In this document: positions 12,954 to 45,220 of the stretch, in pieces
Numbering within the stretch: position 1 is the stretch's first letter
Layout: every line of letters begins with the position of its first letter
Assembly: GCA_016191085.1 (NCBI GenBank)
Contig: JACPPJ010000013.1
Span: 9,415-73,414 of the forward strand
Direction: 5' to 3'
Source: Acidobacteriota bacterium
GTDB taxonomy: Bacteria; Acidobacteriota; Terriglobia; 2-12-FULL-54-10
DNA: 64,000 nucleotides
Notes under the pieces: model-generated
What the model saw: only the letters and a program-made list of their open reading frames with translations
Told to the model about the DNA's origin: nothing
Databases searched by the model: none
Made by a program: the position numbers and the translations under genes

Positions 12954-14189
<1,236 letters not shown>

Positions 14190-14203
14190 CTGAGGGAGGA
14201 CCA

Positions 14204-14464
14204 ATGAAGCGCCGGAAAATCAAAAAGGTTTACTCCTACCAGATTAACCTCGTCCCGGAAAAGGAGGGGGGATACACGGTTCTCGTACCCTTGCTGCCCG
14301 GTTGTGTCTCCTATGGCGCCACCATCGAGGAAGCCACGGAAAACGCTAAGGAAGCCATCTCGATGCACCTTGAAAACCTCGCCGCTCATAAACAGGCCAT
14401 ACCCGAAGGGCACGAAACTCCTGTGTTCACCACTCTGGTTTCGGTCACCGCCTCGCATGTCTAA
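14204..14464 (+). CDS. hicB: HicB-family antitoxin (UPF0150-type, no DNA-binding extension)
   Basis: YSYQINLVPEKEGGYTVLVPLLPGCVSYGATIEEATENAKEAISMHLENL is the typical HicB N-domain. SD GGGAGGA is upstream. Confidence 0.75.
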   Translation: MKRRKIKKVYSYQINLVPEKEGGYTVLVPLLPGCVSYGATIEEATENAKEAISMHLENLAAHKQAIPEGHETPVFTTLVSVTASHV

Positions 14465-14495
14465 AGAGCTTCCACACTCGGTTCTAATTTTGTGA
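14457..14495 (+). pseudogene. Possible hicA stub (12 codons)
   Basis: ATGTCTAA overlaps the hicB stop. It reads MSKELPHSVLIL-stop, and the opening MSK-LP--S resembles HicA N-termini. A shifted frame just downstream reads ITKSHP, which could be a remnant of the GSH motif. Very short, so weak. Confidence 0.25.
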
Positions 14496-14596
14496 ATTAC
14501 CAAGAGCCACCCTGCTTCCCATAACGGGTCATCCCGACCCCCGAATTCAACGCAGTCGATTAGATTTTAGCGTTCGGTATTGGAGAACAATCGTAG

Positions 14597-15556
14597 GTGA
14601 AGCCCAGAATTGAAGAAATCGCTCACGAATTACAAACTGACATCGATCCAATCAAGAGCGTCGATGCACTGCGTTTCGACAAACTTGTAAATCTATGCGT
14701 TGTAGCAGCAACGACGGCTCTTGACAACTCCGTCGGCCCGTACACGGAATTTGAACGTTGGCATTTTGCACAGATCTTCAAGTCCATGGGGCACAGCCAT
14801 CGATCTGTTCGGAACCTTGTCACCAAGGGCCGTGAGAACCCTGAGTCTGTGGATGCGTTGATAATCGCGAGAGCACAAATAGAGTGGGTCTTTACCGCGT
14901 ACGTTCTACTAGAGAAGCCGGAAACGTTTGCCGTTTTTCTTAAAGATGCCTGGCGGAAGAAATACATAAGATACCTCATCGAGAGGCAAGAGTGTCGCAA
15001 TCTACCACGGTTTGGCAAATTCCTAAACGAGCAAGCAGAACCCGCACTCGAAGCACTGAGGAACATTGTGAATGTGTCGGACGAGGAGAAGCAAACGATC
15101 GAAGCGGAATATCTCGGCACGGCTCTGCCAAATTCAGGCTCCAAAAAAATCCCAACGTTTCCCACACCCGGCCAAGCCTTGAGTCAAATGAAATCGCCCA
15201 CGAAGAAAGCTGTGCTTGATCGGCTTTACTTTGAGTATGTGTGGCTGTGCTCGTTCGTTCACGGCTCTCCCGAGTCTACGTTGGCCAGGGCGATGTTTGA
15301 CAAGCGTTCCAAATACATTGAATTGTTCTCAACGGACCAGCATGAAGACGCATGGCGGAAGGAGGTCGGCGAAAAAGCTGTACTGTTGAGCGTGTTGTCG
15401 GTAGGGGTTTGCACAGCCGAGTTGGTGGAAATTTACCGCTCAGACATTGAATTGCGAAGGGCAGCCGGAGAGACCTGTGGCGAGTTGGCAGAATTTAGTT
15501 TGCTGGCCCAATCCCTGTGGCAGCGTCGGCTGAAGCAAATCCTAGGAGTAATATAG
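14597..15556 (+). CDS. Hypothetical 319-aa soluble, apparently all-helical protein (unplaced; faintly AbiV/DUF5677-like)
   Basis: Long ORF (GTG start) in an AT-richer stretch. Protein-like composition, no signal peptide or TM. Segments ALIIARAQIEWVFTAYVLLEKPE and LYFEYVWLCSFVHGSPES. No motif that I can assign with confidence. Confidence 0.6.
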   Translation: MKPRIEEIAHELQTDIDPIKSVDALRFDKLVNLCVVAATTALDNSVGPYTEFERWHFAQIFKSMGHSHRSVRNLVTKGRENPESVDALIIARAQIEWVFTAYVLLEKPETFAVFLKDAWRKKYIRYLIERQECRNLPRFGKFLNEQAEPALEALRNIVNVSDEEKQTIEAEYLGTALPNSGSKKIPTFPTPGQALSQMKSPTKKAVLDRLYFEYVWLCSFVHGSPESTLARAMFDKRSKYIELFSTDQHEDAWRKEVGEKAVLLSVLSVGVCTAELVEIYRSDIELRRAAGETCGELAEFSLLAQSLWQRRLKQILGVI

Positions 15557-15605
15557 CGAGTGCGAAGGCGGGCCATTTCTGCCGTACGCTTGTGGTTTTA
15601 CGTAT

Positions 15606-15827
15606 TCAGGACCGGGGAAGTTGGTTTTTGGCGACTCTCATGAGAAAGCGAATCGCCTCGTTTACGGCCTGCGAATCGGGAAACACCGCAGCCACATCCG
15701 GCGCCAGTTGGATCGCTGGTGATGGTGGAGCCTTTCGGCCCGGTCCTCTGGCCACCACGTCGCGAGCGCGAAAATCATACTCGGGGCGGAGATCGTCCTT
15801 GGACATACCCGAAGGGTTCCTTTTCAT
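15606..15827 (-). CDS. Small BrnA-like / CopG-like putative antitoxin (orphan)
   Basis: 73 aa: ...MSKDDLRPEYDFRARDVVARG...IQLAPDVAAVFPDSQAVNEAIRFLMRVAK. This pattern (PEYDF ... LDPDVAxxFPDSxxVNxALR) is one I recall from small antitoxin-like proteins. It starts 7 nt after the cpaF stop, and no toxin gene is adjacent. Confidence 0.45.
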   Translation of the reverse strand: MKRNPSGMSKDDLRPEYDFRARDVVARGPGRKAPPSPAIQLAPDVAAVFPDSQAVNEAIRFLMRVAKNQLPRS

Positions 15828-15833
15828 GGACGA

Positions 15834-17171
15834 TTATACAGAAAGCGATTGCTCGAACAGCCCAGGCGAGACCTGCAGCCCGGCCAGGCGCATTCGTTCC
15901 AGGCAGCGCGGCTGGGCGCCCGTAGCGCGGAAGGTGCCCCGCACCGTTCCATCGGCCTCGACGCCGCTGCGCTGAAACACGAAGATATCCTGCACCAGAA
16001 TATCGAGATCGCTCAAGCCCAGGACCTCGGCGATGTGCGTCACTTTGCGGCGGCCGTCGCTGAGGCGCGCGGTCTGCACCACAATGTGAATCACTGAAGC
16101 CATTTGCTGGCGGATGAACCGGCTGGGCAGATCGAGCTTGGCCATCATGACCATAGTTTCGAGGCGGCTGAAGGCGTCCGCCGGAGAGTTGGCGTGAACC
16201 GTAGTCATGGAGCCTTCGACGCCTGTGCCCATCGCCTGTAACATGTCGAGCGCTTCGCCGCCGCGCGCCTCGCCCAATAGGATGCGGTCCGGGCGCATGC
16301 GCAGCGCGGTCATCAGGAGCTGCCGCTGCGTGATGGTTCCCTTGCCCTCAATGTTCGGCGGGCGTGTCTCCATGCGGATCACGTTCTCAAGCTGCAACTG
16401 CAACTCCGCCGTGTCTTCAATGGTGACCACGCGTTCTTCCGGGGGAATGAAGCGCGAAAGGCAATTGAGAAACGTGGTCTTGCCGGAGCCGGTGCCGCCC
16501 GAGATCACGATGTTGAAGCGGGCCTCAATGCATTTGCCCAGAAACTCCAGCATAAACGGCGCCAGCGTCTGTTTTTCGAGCAGCTCGTCGTTGGTCAGCA
16601 GCTTGCGCCCAAATCGGCGGATAGAGAGCGACGGCCCGTCTACTGCCAGCGGTGGGATGATGGCGTTCACGCGCGAGCCATCCGGCAGACGCGCGTCCAC
16701 CAGCGGCACGGATTCGTCAATGCGACGGCCCATGCTGGAAACGATTTTCTCGATGATGTGCGTAAGGTGCTTGTCGCTCTGGAAGCGGATACCCGTCTCG
16801 ACCAGCTTTCCGTGCCGCTCGATGTAGACGTTCTTACACGTATTGACCAGGATATCCGAGATGGTGGGGTCCTTTAGAAGCGGCTCCAGCGGGCCCAGTC
16901 CGAACACTTCATCGAGTATCTCCTCGACCAGTCGGTTCCGCTCGGTCATGCTGATGGGCAAGCGGTCCTCCTGAAGCATTTTCTCGAGGACGGAGCGCAC
17001 TTCGCCGCGCAGGCGGTCGCGGCTGACCGCCTTCAACGCATCCATGTTGAGCACGCCCAGGAGCTTGCCGTGAACGCGTGTCTTCAAATCAAAGTAGCGG
17101 TCCTGAGCTGCAGTGGTACCAGAAGCGATGCTCGGCGGCGGAAGGCGGTTGAGGATTGATGTGATAGCCAT
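15834..17171 (-). CDS. cpaF: CpaF/TadA-family secretion ATPase, orphan paralog
   Basis: Walker A GGTGSGKTT, Walker B-region DRILLGEARG. Roughly 60 percent identical by eye to the second cpaF at 31747. The His-box reads MGTGVEGSMTTVHAN instead of [15 protein letters not shown]. Confidence 0.9.
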   Translation of the reverse strand: MAITSILNRLPPPSIASGTTAAQDRYFDLKTRVHGKLLGVLNMDALKAVSRDRLRGEVRSVLEKMLQEDRLPISMTERNRLVEEILDEVFGLGPLEPLLKDPTISDILVNTCKNVYIERHGKLVETGIRFQSDKHLTHIIEKIVSSMGRRIDESVPLVDARLPDGSRVNAIIPPLAVDGPSLSIRRFGRKLLTNDELLEKQTLAPFMLEFLGKCIEARFNIVISGGTGSGKTTFLNCLSRFIPPEERVVTIEDTAELQLQLENVIRMETRPPNIEGKGTITQRQLLMTALRMRPDRILLGEARGGEALDMLQAMGTGVEGSMTTVHANSPADAFSRLETMVMMAKLDLPSRFIRQQMASVIHIVVQTARLSDGRRKVTHIAEVLGLSDLDILVQDIFVFQRSGVEADGTVRGTFRATGAQPRCLERMRLAGLQVSPGLFEQSLSV

Positions 17172-17393: not shown

Positions 17394-20300
17394 CTAGTGG
17401 ATGGCAGCCACCGGGGCATCGGTGCTGGCGCTGCTAACTCCGCCGGTACTGATGATCACAGGCAGGTCGTCTCCCTGCTGCCGGTCGCCGGGGACGTAGA
17501 TGTTGATTTGGTAGGTTCCCACAAACCCGGGCGCTAACCCAGCATAAAGCACAGTGTACTCGCTGAATCCGATTCTGACGCTGACATTCTGCGTAGTAGG
17601 CGACAGCGGATTCGACCCGCCGGCTTGGCCGGAAGGCACGGCCGGTCTCACGGCGCCCAATCCGGTGGCATAAAGCACCAGAACTTCATCTCGACGCGCG
17701 GGATGATCGGGAGTGACGAGCGAGAAATCCCTGCTGTGATAGAGTAACGCCCGCCGTTCTCCGTTCAGGTCCATCGAGAACACGCCCGGCGCGGCGGCGC
17801 TAACTTGCACTTGAACTCCCTGGCTGACCAGTCCCAAATCGGTTGAACGCACGGTGAGCGTGACGCGGCCGGCGTTCAGTTCGGTCGGCAATTGGGCGTT
17901 GATCTGGTTGTCAGAGGTGTACAGCAGAGGGATGGCGATCTCATTGGCCGTGACACAAACACCGCCCATGGAGGTCGGCAACGGAACGGCGCTGGCGGAA
18001 TCGGAGCCCGATAGATTCGATCCAAAGATGCTGATCAGTGATCCCGGCGCAAGCTGAGGACTGTAACTGGCGCCGTTAACAACGCTGTTGGATCGGAACG
18101 ATGGCGCGCGCGGCGCCGCAGTCGCGAGCGGCACAATGCTGAGCCCGGAGAGCGTGAGCAGATAAGCATTATTGGCGCCGTCCACGCTGATGGCGCGCGG
18201 CAGCAACTGCGTTTGCCCGTTTACTCCAATTTCGCGCGATACGATGTTCGGCGGCCACAAGCGTGTGACGGTCGCGATCGATGTCTGCGTGGTGGGACTG
18301 ATGTCCATTACCTGCTCCGGGAGCTTGAACTCCCGCATAAGGACGAGATTGTTCAGGTTGATCATTTGCAACCTCTGTATCGGTACCTGGGGGTCGGCGG
18401 CCTGTATGCGGACTGCGTTCCTGCCTGCGGCGGAAGTGCCGAAGGTCAGTGTCGTCTGCGCGGCGGCACCGCCACCTCCGCCACCTACGACGGGCGGGGC
18501 TGGAGCCATTGTGCCGACAGGTCCTAACGCGGAATTGACCACCGTGTCATCCACGACGAAGAAACTGCCGTCGGGTGCTGCCGAAACCGTCCCTCGAAAT
18601 CCGGTTACCGCGCCGAGCCGTGACGCCACGAACGCGTCGGCAAGTGGATCGTACAGCCGCAGATTCCCGATGTTCCCGTTGGAATCATAAATGACAATTG
18701 CGCTGCCGTTCTCCGGCGCCAGCAAGCGGTTACGGCCCTGGATCACGTTGTTCACGTTCTGCCCCAGATTCAGACGCGGGAAGGCGCTGCGCGTTGCCAG
18801 GCTGAGTTGCCAAACGGAACCGTTACCCGGCGCCGCTCCTGCTTGCCCGGGCAGCGGCACGACCGTAAACAGGACGGCATTGCTGGATGCCGCAATCTGG
18901 CGCGGAAAGAGCGGCGTCGCGTTGATTGGGACGGGAGCCATGGGGATAGAATCCACCACCTGCATCTGGTCCAGGTCTATTACGGAGATCAGTTCGGAGC
19001 CGGAGTTGGCCACCACGAGCGTCGAAGGGTTGACCATCGCCATTGAAAGCGGGCGATTGCCCACACGAATCGGCGGCAGGAAGTTCTGATCCGCAATCGA
19101 GAACACCTCGATCTGATCCAGCGTGTAATTGGCGATGTACACACGTTGTCTGAGTTCATCCAACTGCGTCGCCACTCCCACGCCGTTGATCGGGGCGATA
19201 CTCCCGACTTGGTCGGTATCGCGGAAATTGATATTCACCAGGATGGCCGGCTCGATATTGACGGCCTCCGGCGACACCAGCACGACAGCAAATTGCTGCG
19301 TGCCGCGCGTGGTTACCGTCCGCGGATTAAATGTGATTCGCAAAGTGGAAGGAGCCAGTCCCGTTGATTGGCTGACGATCACGGGCACGTTGGCGCCGGC
19401 ATTGTTCAGCGCCGCGTTGAACGTAAGCCGGCCGCCGCCAAGATTCTGCACCTGCACTTGCGCGCTCACCAGCGCTCTATTGCAGATATTCACAGACAAA
19501 ACTACGTTCGAGGTGTCCACCGCTAAGACCGGCAGTTGGTTCAGCCGCCCGATGGGAATTACCATCAAGCCCGAAGTAGAGATGGCAAACAGATTTTGCC
19601 CATCCGGTGACGCGACGATCTTGGGGTTAATCGCTTCCGCCAGTCGCAGCCCAAGCAGCGGCGTCAGGCTGGTCGCCCTCATGAGCTGTAGGACGCCTTG
19701 GGTTGGCGCTCCCGGCACACGCCCGCCGATGCCGGGCAATACCGCCCCTCCCGGGTTCTGTGGGTTATTTGTGTTCAGTGGGTTGATGGGAGGCTGCGTC
19801 GAAAACGTCGAGTACACCGTGTTGCCATCTACCGAAAAGACGCTCCCGCCCGTCAGCACAGGGTTGAGCGAAGGCGTGCCCGCGCGGCCCAGAATAGACA
19901 TTGTCTGGGTGTCAAACAGGAATGGGCCGGCCATAAAGCGCGAGCCGTCTCCCGAAATCGAAAGTATGGCGCTGACGCCGGTCACGTTTCGCGCGCGCAC
20001 TACAGTCGCCGAGGCAACGTCATAGACGAACAGGCGTCCATTGGCGGCGTTCAACTGTGAAAGTCCGACGATCAGATTTCCGGCGGCTGAAGTTACCATC
20101 CCGGCGCGAAAGCCCGACGGAACGGCACTGCCCGGAATGTTGGGCAGCCCCGGGGGACTCGGCGGAACGGAAACAGGCAATTGAAACGGCTGGCCGGTCG
20201 CGGGATCAATACGGAACAGGCCCGCCGGTCCCAGCACCACAATTGCACCGTCATAGCCAACAGCAACGGCGTCCGGCCTGCTCGCAAGGCTGATCGTGTT

Positions 20301-20660
20301 CACGGGTTCCTGCGTATTCAAGTTGACGACGGTGATACTCCAGGGCTGGGCAGTATTGGCGTTAGCTACGTATAAGGTTTGCCCGTCAGGGCTGATGGCC
20401 AGACTCGCTGGACTGAGACCCGCGGAAATTGGACTGAGCAGCGTTCCGCCCTCGACAGAGTAAACGTCCACTCGGTTCCCGGTGAAGTTAGCGAGATAAA
20501 CCAGGCTACGTTGTTCGTCGTAGGCCAGATCGGCCACTTGCCCGACAACAGGCACCACCGTGCCGATATTTGCTGCGAAGGCACTGCTGAAGGTTAGAAA
20601 TGTCAGAAGACACATCAGCGGTAATCCGCCGCGCCAAAGCTGATTAAATGATGACTTCAT
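17394..20660 (-). CDS. Giant secreted beta-propeller-repeat protein with TIGR03437-like C-terminal domain
   Basis: Likely start MKSSFNQLWRGGLPLMCLLTFLTFSSAFA (ATG 20660). YVTN/lactonase-like repeats (LVYLANFTGNRVDVYS, TLYVANANT, RVYIANYTLDQIEVFS). C-terminus NGASYSPQLAPGSLISIFGSNL...LYAGLAPGFVGTYQINIYVP. Confidence 0.8.
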   Translation of the reverse strand: MKSSFNQLWRGGLPLMCLLTFLTFSSAFAANIGTVVPVVGQVADLAYDEQRSLVYLANFTGNRVDVYSVEGGTLLSPISAGLSPASLAISPDGQTLYVANANTAQPWSITVVNLNTQEPVNTISLASRPDAVAVGYDGAIVVLGPAGLFRIDPATGQPFQLPVSVPPSPPGLPNIPGSAVPSGFRAGMVTSAAGNLIVGLSQLNAANGRLFVYDVASATVVRARNVTGVSAILSISGDGSRFMAGPFLFDTQTMSILGRAGTPSLNPVLTGGSVFSVDGNTVYSTFSTQPPINPLNTNNPQNPGGAVLPGIGGRVPGAPTQGVLQLMRATSLTPLLGLRLAEAINPKIVASPDGQNLFAISTSGLMVIPIGRLNQLPVLAVDTSNVVLSVNICNRALVSAQVQVQNLGGGRLTFNAALNNAGANVPVIVSQSTGLAPSTLRITFNPRTVTTRGTQQFAVVLVSPEAVNIEPAILVNINFRDTDQVGSIAPINGVGVATQLDELRQRVYIANYTLDQIEVFSIADQNFLPPIRVGNRPLSMAMVNPSTLVVANSGSELISVIDLDQMQVVDSIPMAPVPINATPLFPRQIAASSNAVLFTVVPLPGQAGAAPGNGSVWQLSLATRSAFPRLNLGQNVNNVIQGRNRLLAPENGSAIVIYDSNGNIGNLRLYDPLADAFVASRLGAVTGFRGTVSAAPDGSFFVVDDTVVNSALGPVGTMAPAPPVVGGGGGGAAAQTTLTFGTSAAGRNAVRIQAADPQVPIQRLQMINLNNLVLMREFKLPEQVMDISPTTQTSIATVTRLWPPNIVSREIGVNGQTQLLPRAISVDGANNAYLLTLSGLSIVPLATAAPRAPSFRSNSVVNGASYSPQLAPGSLISIFGSNLSGSDSASAVPLPTSMGGVCVTANEIAIPLLYTSDNQINAQLPTELNAGRVTLTVRSTDLGLVSQGVQVQVSAAAPGVFSMDLNGERRALLYHSRDFSLVTPDHPARRDEVLVLYATGLGAVRPAVPSGQAGGSNPLSPTTQNVSVRIGFSEYTVLYAGLAPGFVGTYQINIYVPGDRQQGDDLPVIISTGGVSSASTDAPVAAIH

Positions 20661-20848
20661 GCAACCGGCCAATATCCAAATACCCCGTTCGGCTCCTAGA
20701 CTCAAACCACCGTGCCTGCGACGGGAACTGTGCGCGGCATGGCCCCTCAACGGTGCAGGCACCGCCCGGGCGCCACAATGCGTTAATACAATAACCCGAA
20801 TCGCCCTGAAAAGTTTCGCGAATTGTCGGCCCACGAAATGAGGTAGAG

Positions 20849-42938: not shown

Positions 42939-43400
42939 ATGGCAGAACGCGACAGGGAAGAGGAATCGCAGGGATTCAAGGTAGTAGATCGCCGCCTATT
43001 CACTCCTGAAGGCGAACGGCGGGTGGAGGCAGAACCGCAGCCACCTAAGACGGCAGAGAAGCCACCGGCCGCTGAGACGCGGACGCCGTCACGAAAAGAG
43101 CCCGCCGAGGCGCCATCTGCGCACGCCGAACCTCACGCGCATGGACCCGTAGGTTTCGAACACCTCGTCATGTCGCTTGCCACCACGGCCATGTATCAAC
43201 TCGGATTGGTGAAGAACCACGAAGAGGACCAACCCAGGGTGGACCTCGAAGCCGCCAAAGAGACCATTGATCTGCTGGACATCCTACAGCAAAAAACCAA
43301 AGGCAACCTGACGCAGGAGGAACAAGGACTGCTCGAGGGCAGCCTCTATGAACTGCGGATGATGTTCGTCGAGCTTTCCAAACCGGGGCGGAGCCGCTGA
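42939..43400 (+). CDS. DUF1844 domain protein
   Basis: FKVVDRRLFTPEG... N-terminus, a Pro/Glu-rich linker, then FEHLVMSLATTAMYQLGL...DLEAAKETIDLLDILQQKTKGNL. Confidence 0.7.
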   Translation: MAERDREEESQGFKVVDRRLFTPEGERRVEAEPQPPKTAEKPPAAETRTPSRKEPAEAPSAHAEPHAHGPVGFEHLVMSLATTAMYQLGLVKNHEEDQPRVDLEAAKETIDLLDILQQKTKGNLTQEEQGLLEGSLYELRMMFVELSKPGRSR

Positions 43401-43415
43401 TTTCGTGGATCTGAT

Positions 43416-44189
43416 ATGCGGATAGAGTTAACCGTTCTGGGATCGGGAACCTCCATGGGGGTCCCTACCATCTCGTGCCGTTGCGCCGTCTGCACGTCGC
43501 CCGACCCGCACGACAACCGTACACGCCCTTCCATCATGCTGCGTTACAACGAGCATGTTGTCTTGGTGGACACTACTCCGGATTTTCGCTTTCAGATGCT
43601 GCGTGAGCAGGTGGACCGGCTGGACGCGGTGCTCTACACCCATTCGCATGCGGATCACATTCTGGGATTGGACGATGTTCGCCCGTTCAATTTGCAGGAA
43701 ACCAAAGTCATTCCCATCTACGGCAACAGGCAGGCGATTGACGGCGTGCGGCGGGTGTTCAAGTACATCTTCGACGGCAATTATCCGTTCGGCGGCGTTC
43801 CGCTGGTGCAGGACCACCTCATCAACGGTCCCATCGACCTTTTCGGACTGGAGTTCGTTCCTGTTAGAGTGATGCACGGCTACCTGGAAGTGCTTGGCTT
43901 CCGCTTTGGCCCCGTGGCTTATTTGACCGACTACAATCGAATCCCGGATTCTTCTTATCCCTTGCTGCGCGATCTGGACGTGATCTTTCTTGACGCGCTG
44001 CGGCACATGTCACATCCAACACATATGACTGTGGCTCAGGCTTTGCAAGAAGTGGAAAAGATCGCGCCGCGCCGCGCCTTCTTCACGCACATCGCGCATG
44101 ACCTGGGCCACGAAGAAACCAATGCCAAGCTGCCCGATCACGTGCGGCTGTGCTACGACGGAATGCGCCTGGAATTCGACACGGATTAA
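43416..44189 (+). CDS. MBL-fold metallo-hydrolase (PhnP-like)
   Basis: LGSGTSMGVP...C-x-C-x2-C cluster...YTHSHADHILGLDD is the HxHxDH motif. Confidence 0.8.
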   Translation: MRIELTVLGSGTSMGVPTISCRCAVCTSPDPHDNRTRPSIMLRYNEHVVLVDTTPDFRFQMLREQVDRLDAVLYTHSHADHILGLDDVRPFNLQETKVIPIYGNRQAIDGVRRVFKYIFDGNYPFGGVPLVQDHLINGPIDLFGLEFVPVRVMHGYLEVLGFRFGPVAYLTDYNRIPDSSYPLLRDLDVIFLDALRHMSHPTHMTVAQALQEVEKIAPRRAFFTHIAHDLGHEETNAKLPDHVRLCYDGMRLEFDTD

Positions 44190-44194
44190 CCCGA

Positions 44195-45154
44195 ATGGAG
44201 ATTCTTCGTTCTCTTGAAGACGCTGCAAAGAGGCGCGGCCCGTCCGTCGTAACAATCGGCAACTTTGATGGTATACATCTCGCCCATCGGGACCTGCTGC
44301 GACGCGTCCGGGAGCTGACTTGCGACAGCGATGCGTTGAGCGTGGCGATCACGTTCGATCCTCATCCCGCAGAGATACTGCGACCCGACAGAGCCCCCAA
44401 ACTGCTAACACCTCTTCCCAAGAAGATCGAGTTGATGCAGGCAACCGGCCTTGATCGCCTGCTGATATTGCCATTCACCAAGGAGTTTTCACAGTGGAGC
44501 CCGGAGCGATTCGTGGAGGAGGTTCTTGTGAAATCGCTGCACGCTACGGGCGTCGTCATCGGCGAGAATTTCCGCTTTGGTTACCGCCAGGCCGGCAATC
44601 CGCAGACTCTCGAGGAACTCGGCAAGCACCACGGCTTTGGAACAGAGATTTTCCCGAAGATGTACGTACGCAACCTTCTGGTCAGCAGCTCCGAAATCCG
44701 TTCACTGCTCAGCAAGGGGAAACTGGTGCAGGCCAACCGCCTGCTAGGCCATTGCTTCAGCATTCGAAACGCTGTTGAATCCGGCTTGGGAATCGGCCGC
44801 AGCCAGACCGTTCCTACATTCAATTTGGCTAAATACTCCGGGTTGATGCCTGCTTCCGGCGTCTACATCACGTGGGCTACCTTTGAACACGGCAGCGAGA
44901 GATGCAATCTGCGCTCTGTGACAAACGTGGGCACGCGGCCCACCTTCGGCGAGCGTGAACTCGGAATCGAGACGCACCTGCTAGATCCATGGCAAGGACC
45001 GCCCCCAACCGACCTCGAAGTCACTTTCCCTTACCGCCTGCGCGACGAACGTAAATTCGACTCGCCCGAGGCACTGAAGTCGCAGATCATGATGGATATC
45101 CGCCGAGCCGAAAGCTATTTCCGGCGATTGGAAAGGTGGGAGGTAAAAGTCTGA
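44195..45154 (+). CDS. ribF: Bifunctional riboflavin kinase / FAD synthetase
   Basis: VVTIGNFDGIHLAHRDLL (FAD synthetase N-domain). C-terminal kinase domain GxGRxxxxPTxN context (GLGIGRSQTVPTFNL). ATG 44195 is preferred over the longer track ORF, which overlaps the upstream gene. Confidence 0.9.
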   Translation: MEILRSLEDAAKRRGPSVVTIGNFDGIHLAHRDLLRRVRELTCDSDALSVAITFDPHPAEILRPDRAPKLLTPLPKKIELMQATGLDRLLILPFTKEFSQWSPERFVEEVLVKSLHATGVVIGENFRFGYRQAGNPQTLEELGKHHGFGTEIFPKMYVRNLLVSSSEIRSLLSKGKLVQANRLLGHCFSIRNAVESGLGIGRSQTVPTFNLAKYSGLMPASGVYITWATFEHGSERCNLRSVTNVGTRPTFGERELGIETHLLDPWQGPPPTDLEVTFPYRLRDERKFDSPEALKSQIMMDIRRAESYFRRLERWEVKV

Positions 45155-45220
45155 AGTCGCCTCTACCCGCGCATCACTACTTATCTACCTCGTCTGTAGC
45201 AATAGCCCTAGTGCTCTCGA

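Follow-up and report, generated by a model that had tools for sequence, protein, structure and literature searches.

A solitary DUF5677-family gene beside orphan antitoxin genes in an AT-rich islet of an Acidobacteriota genome, probably independent pieces rather than one system

Introduction

When two antitoxin-type genes bracket an uncharacterized protein in a short AT-rich stretch of a bacterial genome, the question arises whether the three form one system or are separate pieces that share a site. The case considered here lies in a stretch of 64,000 nucleotides (nt) from an Acidobacteriota bacterium (assembly GCA_016191085.1, contig JACPPJ010000013.1, positions 9,415 to 73,414 of the forward strand), hereafter the window, in which an islet at 14204-15827 separates the housekeeping gene ispG from a cpaF-type gene. 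On its plus strand the islet carries a hicB gene encoding a short HicB-family antitoxin of 86 amino acids (aa; 14204-14464) and, with a GTG start, an open reading frame (ORF) of 319 aa (14597-15556); on the minus strand, convergent with these, is a 73-aa ORF (15606-15827) that occupies the place of a BrnA-type antitoxin without a toxin. The initial annotation, made from the letters alone, had offered two options for this arrangement, a graveyard of toxin-antitoxin (TA) modules or a non-canonical module or defence gene in which the 319-aa protein is the effector, and the evidence assembled here favours the former. We consider it probable that the islet is an accessory pocket of three independent pieces and not one system, with a solitary 319-aa gene beside which TA cassettes were inserted and decayed.

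Results

The 319-aa gene recurs without fixed partners

The clearest indication that the genes of the islet are separable comes from close relatives of the 319-aa gene. In the window, ispG, hicB and the 319-aa gene follow one another on the plus strand and converge on the BrnA-type ORF and cpaF. In locus L132, which encodes a 318-aa homologue (69% aa identity), the gene begins 53 nt after an ispG whose C-terminus is 77% identical over 44 aa; no hicB intervenes, and the 315 nt downstream of the gene contain neither a BrnA-type ORF nor cpaF. The gene of locus L003 (71% aa identity) is preceded by a DUF5615 PIN-like toxin gene and converges on two small membrane ORFs and ribF, with neither hicB nor brnA. 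Finally, in locus L001 (73% aa identity) it converges on a brnA homologue, a stop-interrupted brnT and ribF. As the add-ons differ among these four close relatives, the 319-aa gene emerges as the stable element and hicB, brnTA and DUF5615 as variable additions drawn from different TA families. As a separate observation on L132, two GC-rich palindrome copies with the look of repetitive extragenic palindromes, GGCACGGCTTCAGCCGTGCC and GGCATGGCTGAAGCCATGCC, lie downstream of the 318-aa homologue (L132:1250-1480).

The ribF gene, which adjoins the 319-aa gene in both L001 and L003, permits a closer view of one such addition. In L001 the brnTA cassette (1184-1641) is flanked by two direct copies of the ribF 3' end, 79 nt long and 86% identical (1096-1174 and 1717-1795), an arrangement that resembles the footprint left by insertion of a small TA cassette at the end of ribF. 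The window has a DUF1844-LactB-ribF block of its own (42954-45160), syntenic with that of L001 at 57-70% aa identity, and no islet stands beside it; ribF there faces a convergent 842-aa gene 66 nt away. Between the window and L001 the 319-aa gene and the BrnA-type gene are 72.5% and 73.7% identical in nt sequence, and the aa identities are 73% for the 319-aa protein, 71% for brnA and 57% for ribF. Synonymous sites are saturated in all three genes alike, with a synonymous divergence (dS) of 2.4 for the 319-aa gene and 1.9 for ribF, and for this reason the idea that the 319-aa gene and brnA had recently moved together by horizontal transfer was rejected as unproven. A metagenome scan for ispG synteny returned 80 loci with ispG at no more than 84% identity, none of them with another gene of the window, and was uninformative on the insertion of the islet.

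The wider family was surveyed with a hand-built degenerate DNA pattern for its FPTP...R...EY...[FY]xH block, which has a specificity of about 39 bits and recovers 38 of 80 full-length members, roughly half of the family. Scanning 185,579 species-representative genomes with this pattern gave 38 loci, 36 of which contain a true family member; most come from Acidobacteriota, Armatimonadota and Actinomycetota account for a few, and some members have their nearest neighbour in another phylum. Neighbouring genes were read from simple ORF calls, with family tables comprising the 25 commonest families. Greedy longest-ORF calling had been rejected for its spurious antisense ORFs, exemplified by one of 105 aa that was chosen in place of hicB in the window.

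No partner emerged from this census. When the 887 ORFs lying up to 1.5 kb from the gene were compared all against all, no neighbour family was shared more widely than between pairs of closely related genomes. Among upstream ORFs no more than 450 nt away from the gene, assigned by Pfam at about 36 loci, HicB (in the window), DUF5615, HTH_37 and Fic each appear once and the rest are housekeeping genes; the equivalent downstream set comprises Phd and the IS200 transposase twice each, PIN, ParE, ParD and BrnT (the last in L001) once each, and otherwise housekeeping genes. Within about 2.4 kb, 150 larger ORFs include AbiEii, a type I restriction endonuclease plus MADS, Septu PtuA/PtuB, SoFic, SIR2 and PDC-S03, each represented by one or two ORFs as raw counts with no matched background. 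As to the two associations contemplated by the initial annotation, HicB adjoins the gene in the window alone and BrnA/BrnT-type genes in the window and L001 alone, and known defence genes occur near it at the counts just given.

The 319-aa family bears an accessory signature in its AT-richness, patchy distribution and lack of a fixed position. In 36 of 38 loci the gene has a lower GC content than the remaining sequence of the locus (mean difference -0.069, Wilcoxon p=7e-11), and searches of 72,556 plasmids and 50,697 phage records found no copy of it. In IMG/VR it was found on one of 2.9 million contigs (L131:883-2287, UViG_3300050821_014180), at a distance of 0.9 kb from the contig end; the 124-aa ORF next after it resembles a regulator with a Cro/CI-type helix-turn-helix, and the contig could represent a prophage edge or host flank. 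At six of the 36 genome loci (L006, L008, L011, L012, L033 and L040) the family member is split into two or three ORFs. Frequent pseudogenization of the family was considered on this basis and given little weight, as four of the six split copies come from MFD metagenome-assembled genomes and may be assembly frameshifts; we take these genomes to be long-read assemblies, which are prone to such errors.

The 319-aa protein is an extended, divergent member of DUF5677

The only Pfam family that recurs among relatives of the 319-aa protein is DUF5677 (PF18928), a family whose function is unknown, which is matched by 33 of 65 relatives at E<=0.01. The 319-aa protein itself exceeds the gathering cut-off of 27.1 bits by a narrow margin (28.3 bits, E=2.2e-6), with residues 67-230 aligned to positions 14-157 of the 166 in the profile. 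The loose resemblance to AbiV/DUF5677-like helical proteins suggested at the outset has thus been borne out, at a borderline level, for DUF5677, and not for AbiV, for which there is neither a recurrent PADLOC match nor a conserved Rx4-6H motif. What sets the subfamily apart from DUF5677 at large is its length of about 320 aa, conserved helices that extend beyond the Pfam domain in both directions (residues 1-66 and 231-319), and a set of motifs of its own (DIDP, THxSIR, LxRxQxE, FPTP and RLYxEYxxLCxFxH). A word-indexed homologue search retrieved only seven relatives, and an exhaustive profile search identified 454 cluster representatives (at 50% identity) with E<=1e-3, including 128 with E<=1e-30. 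The family is mainly from Acidobacteriota, and its full-length members are mostly about 320 aa long and align from end to end.

Three residues, R92, E96 and H222, are invariant across a 65-sequence alignment in which identities fall as low as 21%, and a further 12 (D15, H68, Q94, E132, F188, P189, P191, L207, R209, Y214, W294 and W308) are nearly so. The presence of an invariant Arg/Glu/His set on helices together with other conserved polar residues argues for a catalytic or ligand-binding site, and from the pattern of conservation R92, E96 and H222 with H68, Q94, E132, R209, E213 and Y214 look like its constituents. AlphaFold2, supplied with the same alignment, predicted a compact all-helical bundle of at least 12 helices on which all five models agree (predicted local distance difference test score 96.6, predicted template-modelling score 0.93). 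The initial annotation had noted no transmembrane segment or signal peptide. The protein is soluble in character: its grand average of hydropathy is -0.25, and its one hydrophobic stretch (residues 261-279) is modelled as a buried core helix.

The predicted fold and the sequence profile have no evident counterpart in the collections searched. Foldseek found no fold match in the PDB (best E=0.18, template-modelling score <=0.3) and none among the BFVD viral models, and a profile search of PDB sequences yielded no relative of the family. No PADLOC model recurs among the 65 members, PHROG gave no recurrent match, and none of the Pfam HEPN_* families is matched by any of the 65. This bears directly on the comparison with AbiV/HEPN abortive-infection proteins, which are, like the 319-aa gene, solitary, all-helical, accessory and AT-richer than the host genome; the 319-aa family differs in lacking HEPN_* and recurrent PADLOC matches, the Rx4-6H motif and any HEPN structure by Foldseek. 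At most 12 of the 65 sequences have an Rx4-6H at any single position, His is conserved in only two columns, H68 and H222, and neither is preceded by a conserved Arg at a distance of 5-7 residues.

The 319-aa gene is maintained by purifying selection, with a ratio of nonsynonymous to synonymous substitution rates (dN/dS) of 0.08-0.21; together with the corresponding value of 0.15 for the 73-aa ORF, measured against its L001 homologue and likewise indicating purifying selection, this identifies both as real genes. Three further cases were also encountered. Family member P0083 has a 140-aa N-terminal extension (residues 1-140) that looks folded and has no Pfam match; the extension may derive from a fusion partner or from an upstream gene merged with it. 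A 756-aa ORF in L020 was rejected as a domain fusion since its extension is low-complexity read-through of the kind seen in spurious frames. In L001 (4337-5417), a Phd/YefM antitoxin gene precedes by 55 nt a gene for another DUF5677 protein, 235 aa long and outside the 320-aa subfamily, which may be truncated because its match ends at profile position 83 of 166.

The 73-aa ORF occupies the BrnA position of a BrnT module

The initial annotation had viewed the 73-aa ORF as an antitoxin-type gene with no toxin beside it, and its homologues confirm this view. L001 encodes a 78-aa homologue (1184-1420, - strand) that is 71% identical and convergent with the 319-aa gene in the same way; directly before it, with a 4-nt overlap, is a brnT gene (1417-1641, -; PF04365, E=5.5e-18). 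On a Kovacikia plasmid (L045), a full-length brnT (942-1217; PF04365, E=5.3e-27) is overlapped by a gene for a 70-aa homologue (1201-1413) that is 41% identical to the window protein. The occurrence of a BrnT gene directly before the homologue in two unrelated loci places the 73-aa ORF in the BrnA position of a BrnT module, and it is an antitoxin of the BrnT-associated type. Its C-terminal segment, IQLAPDVAAVFPDSQAVNEAIRFL, appears to have the strand-helix-helix pattern of a ribbon-helix-helix (RHH) antitoxin.

Compared with the BrnTA type II TA system, which is thus shared in the form of homologues immediately downstream of and overlapping BrnT genes, the window differs in the lack of brnT and of a Pfam model match for the 73-aa ORF. 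A tblastn search of the 64 kb with two BrnT proteins detected no brnT. No Pfam (E<=1), NCBIfam or PADLOC model matches the 73-aa ORF, and no Pfam model at E<=10 matches the three of its homologues that were searched; as Pfam presumably holds a BrnA model, the negative for that model is conditional on its presence in the copy used. The 73-aa ORF starts 6 nt past the cpaF stop codon (15828-15836) with no obvious Shine-Dalgarno sequence, and on these grounds it probably forms the tail of the cpaF transcript. In L001, the brnT sequence (1375-1641, -) contains a premature in-frame stop after which BrnT-like sequence continues (...YTV, stop, GRNLVEHVRMISAR); there the toxin is also decaying and the antitoxin ORF is intact.

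The hicB gene is short and has no recognizable hicA

The assignment of the 86-aa protein to HicB, made originally by eye, is secure: it scores 51.3 bits against PF15919 (E=1.7e-13), for which the cut-off is 27, and tblastn detected homologues annotated as HicB on 263 plasmids, with 41-52% identity between the window protein and annotated plasmid HicB genes. A ribosome-binding site, GGGAGG, precedes its ATG by 6 nt. The match covers only positions 1-58 of the 123 in the profile, corresponding to the HicB N-terminal domain, and as the chain ends at residue 86 the C-terminal DNA-binding domain (RHH or helix-turn-helix) of full-length forms is not present.

Since ispG ends 14 nt before hicB, a partner gene could only have been downstream. 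Both orders are found elsewhere, as long HicB genes in Thermus and Leptospira have hicA upstream and a Marivirga plasmid carries a short HicB gene, for a protein of 72 aa, with hicA downstream. The initial annotation had placed a decayed hicA at the 12-codon stub ORF (14458-14496, +) whose ATG overlaps the hicB stop; the stub is as described, MSKELPHSVLIL followed by a stop codon, and its hicA origin was not demonstrated. Translations of the spacer in three frames gave no Pfam match at E<=10, and tblastn with three real HicA proteins against a 211-nt target reached at best an E value of 0.038, in an alignment lying partly upstream of the stub ATG. No hicA was found anywhere in the 64 kb. Decay of hicA at the stub is thus possible and unproven. 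Relative to HicAB type II TA systems, then, the locus shares the HicB N-terminal domain and a short form for which the Marivirga arrangement is a precedent, and differs in having no hicA gene or recognizable remnant and no C-terminal DNA-binding domain. Leptospira interrogans plasmid p5 carries an 84-aa HicB with no annotated hicA, just upstream of which lies a 14-aa HicA fragment (L048:553-594, 86% identical), and this is an independent case of a short HicB left after hicA decay.

The islet differs in base composition from its flanks

The ORF map agrees with the initial annotation on the three ORFs, the 132-nt gap and the 12-codon stub, and computed composition supports its impression that the islet is AT-richer than both flanks. 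The 319-aa gene has a GC content of 0.503 and a GC content at third codon positions (GC3) of 0.566, compared with 0.622 and 0.78 for the upstream ispG (GcpE; 12954-14189, +; PF04551, E=2.9e-111) and 0.611 and 0.79 for the downstream cpaF, which encodes a T2SSE-type ATPase (15834-17171, -; PF00437, E=9.5e-58). The spacer between hicB and the 319-aa gene (14465-14596) is also AT-rich, with a GC content of 0.477. When GC was computed over 960-nt intervals across the 64 kb (mean 0.586, standard deviation 0.025), the six lowest values, 0.498-0.505, belonged to intervals starting at 14101 to 14601, and only 0.6% of all intervals fell at or below 0.503. The islet therefore lies more than three standard deviations below the mean, a dip that is real and far beyond chance. 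A comparable contrast is seen in L132, where the gene has a GC content of 0.508 and its flanks 0.645 and 0.613.

Scans of the spacer for promoters and terminators gave no signal above shuffled expectation, Rfam had no match in the islet or spacer, and searches for flanking repeats and tRNA genes around the islet returned nothing above chance. No tadB/tadC-type genes follow cpaF, which accordingly looks orphaned, in line with the initial annotation; just past it, a 1146-aa protein with weak beta-propeller repeats resembling lactonase or YNCE is encoded (17394-20834, -).

Discussion

According to the reading that we favour, the 319-aa gene would be a long-resident, solitary representative of a divergent, extended DUF5677 branch, encoding a soluble, all-helical, single-domain protein with no dedicated partner gene, and beside it TA cassettes would collect and then decay to orphan antitoxins. 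The hicB gene, situated between ispG and the 319-aa gene in the window and missing from the syntenic L132, may be one such relic, its HicA either never present or deleted; the 73-aa ORF is probably another, an RHH-type antitoxin left over from a BrnT ribonuclease module that has lost its toxin gene. More tentatively, orphan antitoxins of this kind might persist as regulators or anti-addiction genes.

Several points weigh against this interpretation. The 319-aa and BrnA-type genes are adjacent and convergent in both the window and L001, at different chromosomal sites and with equal divergence, and this adjacency in two genomes could be linkage rather than coincidence. TA genes of three families stand beside the gene in three of the four close relatives, which is above what we would expect by chance, although this expectation is unquantified. 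The reliance of the census on simple ORF calls and on tables of the 25 commonest families means that singleton TA and defence matches may be under-counted.

If these associations were functional, the 319-aa protein might be the toxic effector of a non-canonical TA or defence module, neutralized or regulated by HicB, by the BrnA-like protein or by both. Such a module would account for a hicB lying 132 nt upstream on the same strand with its canonical partner missing, and for the retention, in two genomes and at a different site in each, of a BrnA-type gene that adjoins the 319-aa gene and is under purifying selection although brnT is absent or broken; the different DUF5677 protein encoded directly after a Phd/YefM antitoxin gene in L001 points the same way. 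We nevertheless regard it as very unlikely. HicB is upstream of the gene at one of about 36 loci and BrnT nearby at one, so that HicB is confined to the window and BrnA/BrnT to the window and L001; no neighbour family recurs across the set; in L132 the gene directly follows ispG, hicB is missing and the 315 nt after the gene lack a BrnA-type ORF; and L003 has neither antitoxin gene. Moreover, the convergent orientation of the BrnA-type gene means that it cannot share a transcript with the 319-aa gene, and the pairing of the BrnA-type gene with BrnT is plain both in L001 and on the Kovacikia plasmid, while the Phd-DUF5677 pair is a single instance whose DUF5677 copy looks truncated. The effector role proposed in the initial annotation is therefore not upheld.

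What the 319-aa protein does on its own is a separate matter. From the accessory features of the family and its occasional TA and defence neighbours, our preferred guess, offered tentatively, is a stand-alone enzyme with a role in conflict or stress, perhaps an effector of Abi-like or addiction-like type with nucleic acid or nucleotides as its target. This guess has little direct support, as the family has no relative in PADLOC, PHROG, the PDB or BFVD. Housekeeping genes form the majority of the larger neighbours within about 2.4 kb, which also speaks against it, as does the one experimental result for DUF5677 that we found, in one of two passing mentions: a DUF5677 ORF of a Bacillota mobile element was tested, and the five ORFs reported as protecting E. 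faecalis from six phages did not include it (PMC12632615). A more specific version, in which proteins of about 320 aa are stand-alone conflict effectors, with a fold lacking any solved relative, that use R92, E96 and H222, and in which the AT-rich flanks serve as a landing pad for repeated insertion of TA cassettes or the HicB- and BrnA-type proteins have been co-opted here to modulate the effector, appears unlikely.

A lineage-specific role outside conflict is nearly as likely as a conflict or stress enzyme. The protein could be a lineage-restricted metabolic, maintenance or regulatory protein, with constraints on amino acids and codons, or low expression, behind its low GC content and with TA neighbours that are there by coincidence. 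Beyond the mostly housekeeping surroundings, this would suit the saturated dS between the window and L001, which for the 319-aa gene as for ribF marks a long resident and not a recent transfer, the strong purifying selection (dN/dS 0.08), the absence from plasmids and sequenced phages, and the lack of defence-model matches. We hold it doubtful all the same, given that the gene occupies a different context in nearly every genome, that its taxonomy is patchy (36 of 185,579 species representatives, at about 50% pattern sensitivity), that GC3 is depressed alongside overall GC with a deficit in 36 of 38 loci, and that TA genes, IS200 or known defence genes occur near it at several loci.

Taking the islet, as we do, for an accessory pocket around a solitary gene, its three genes are not a unit and the locus fails as a candidate for a new system. 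The uncharacterized 319-aa family is of considerable size, comprising at least 454 clusters at 50% identity, and it combines a confidently predicted all-helical fold, for which there is no PDB or viral match, with an invariant Arg/Glu/His set, making it a reasonable target for structure determination or for a toxicity or defence screen. The locus itself shows TA cassettes coming and going beside one stable gene, with four relatives in four arrangements and one insertion footprint.

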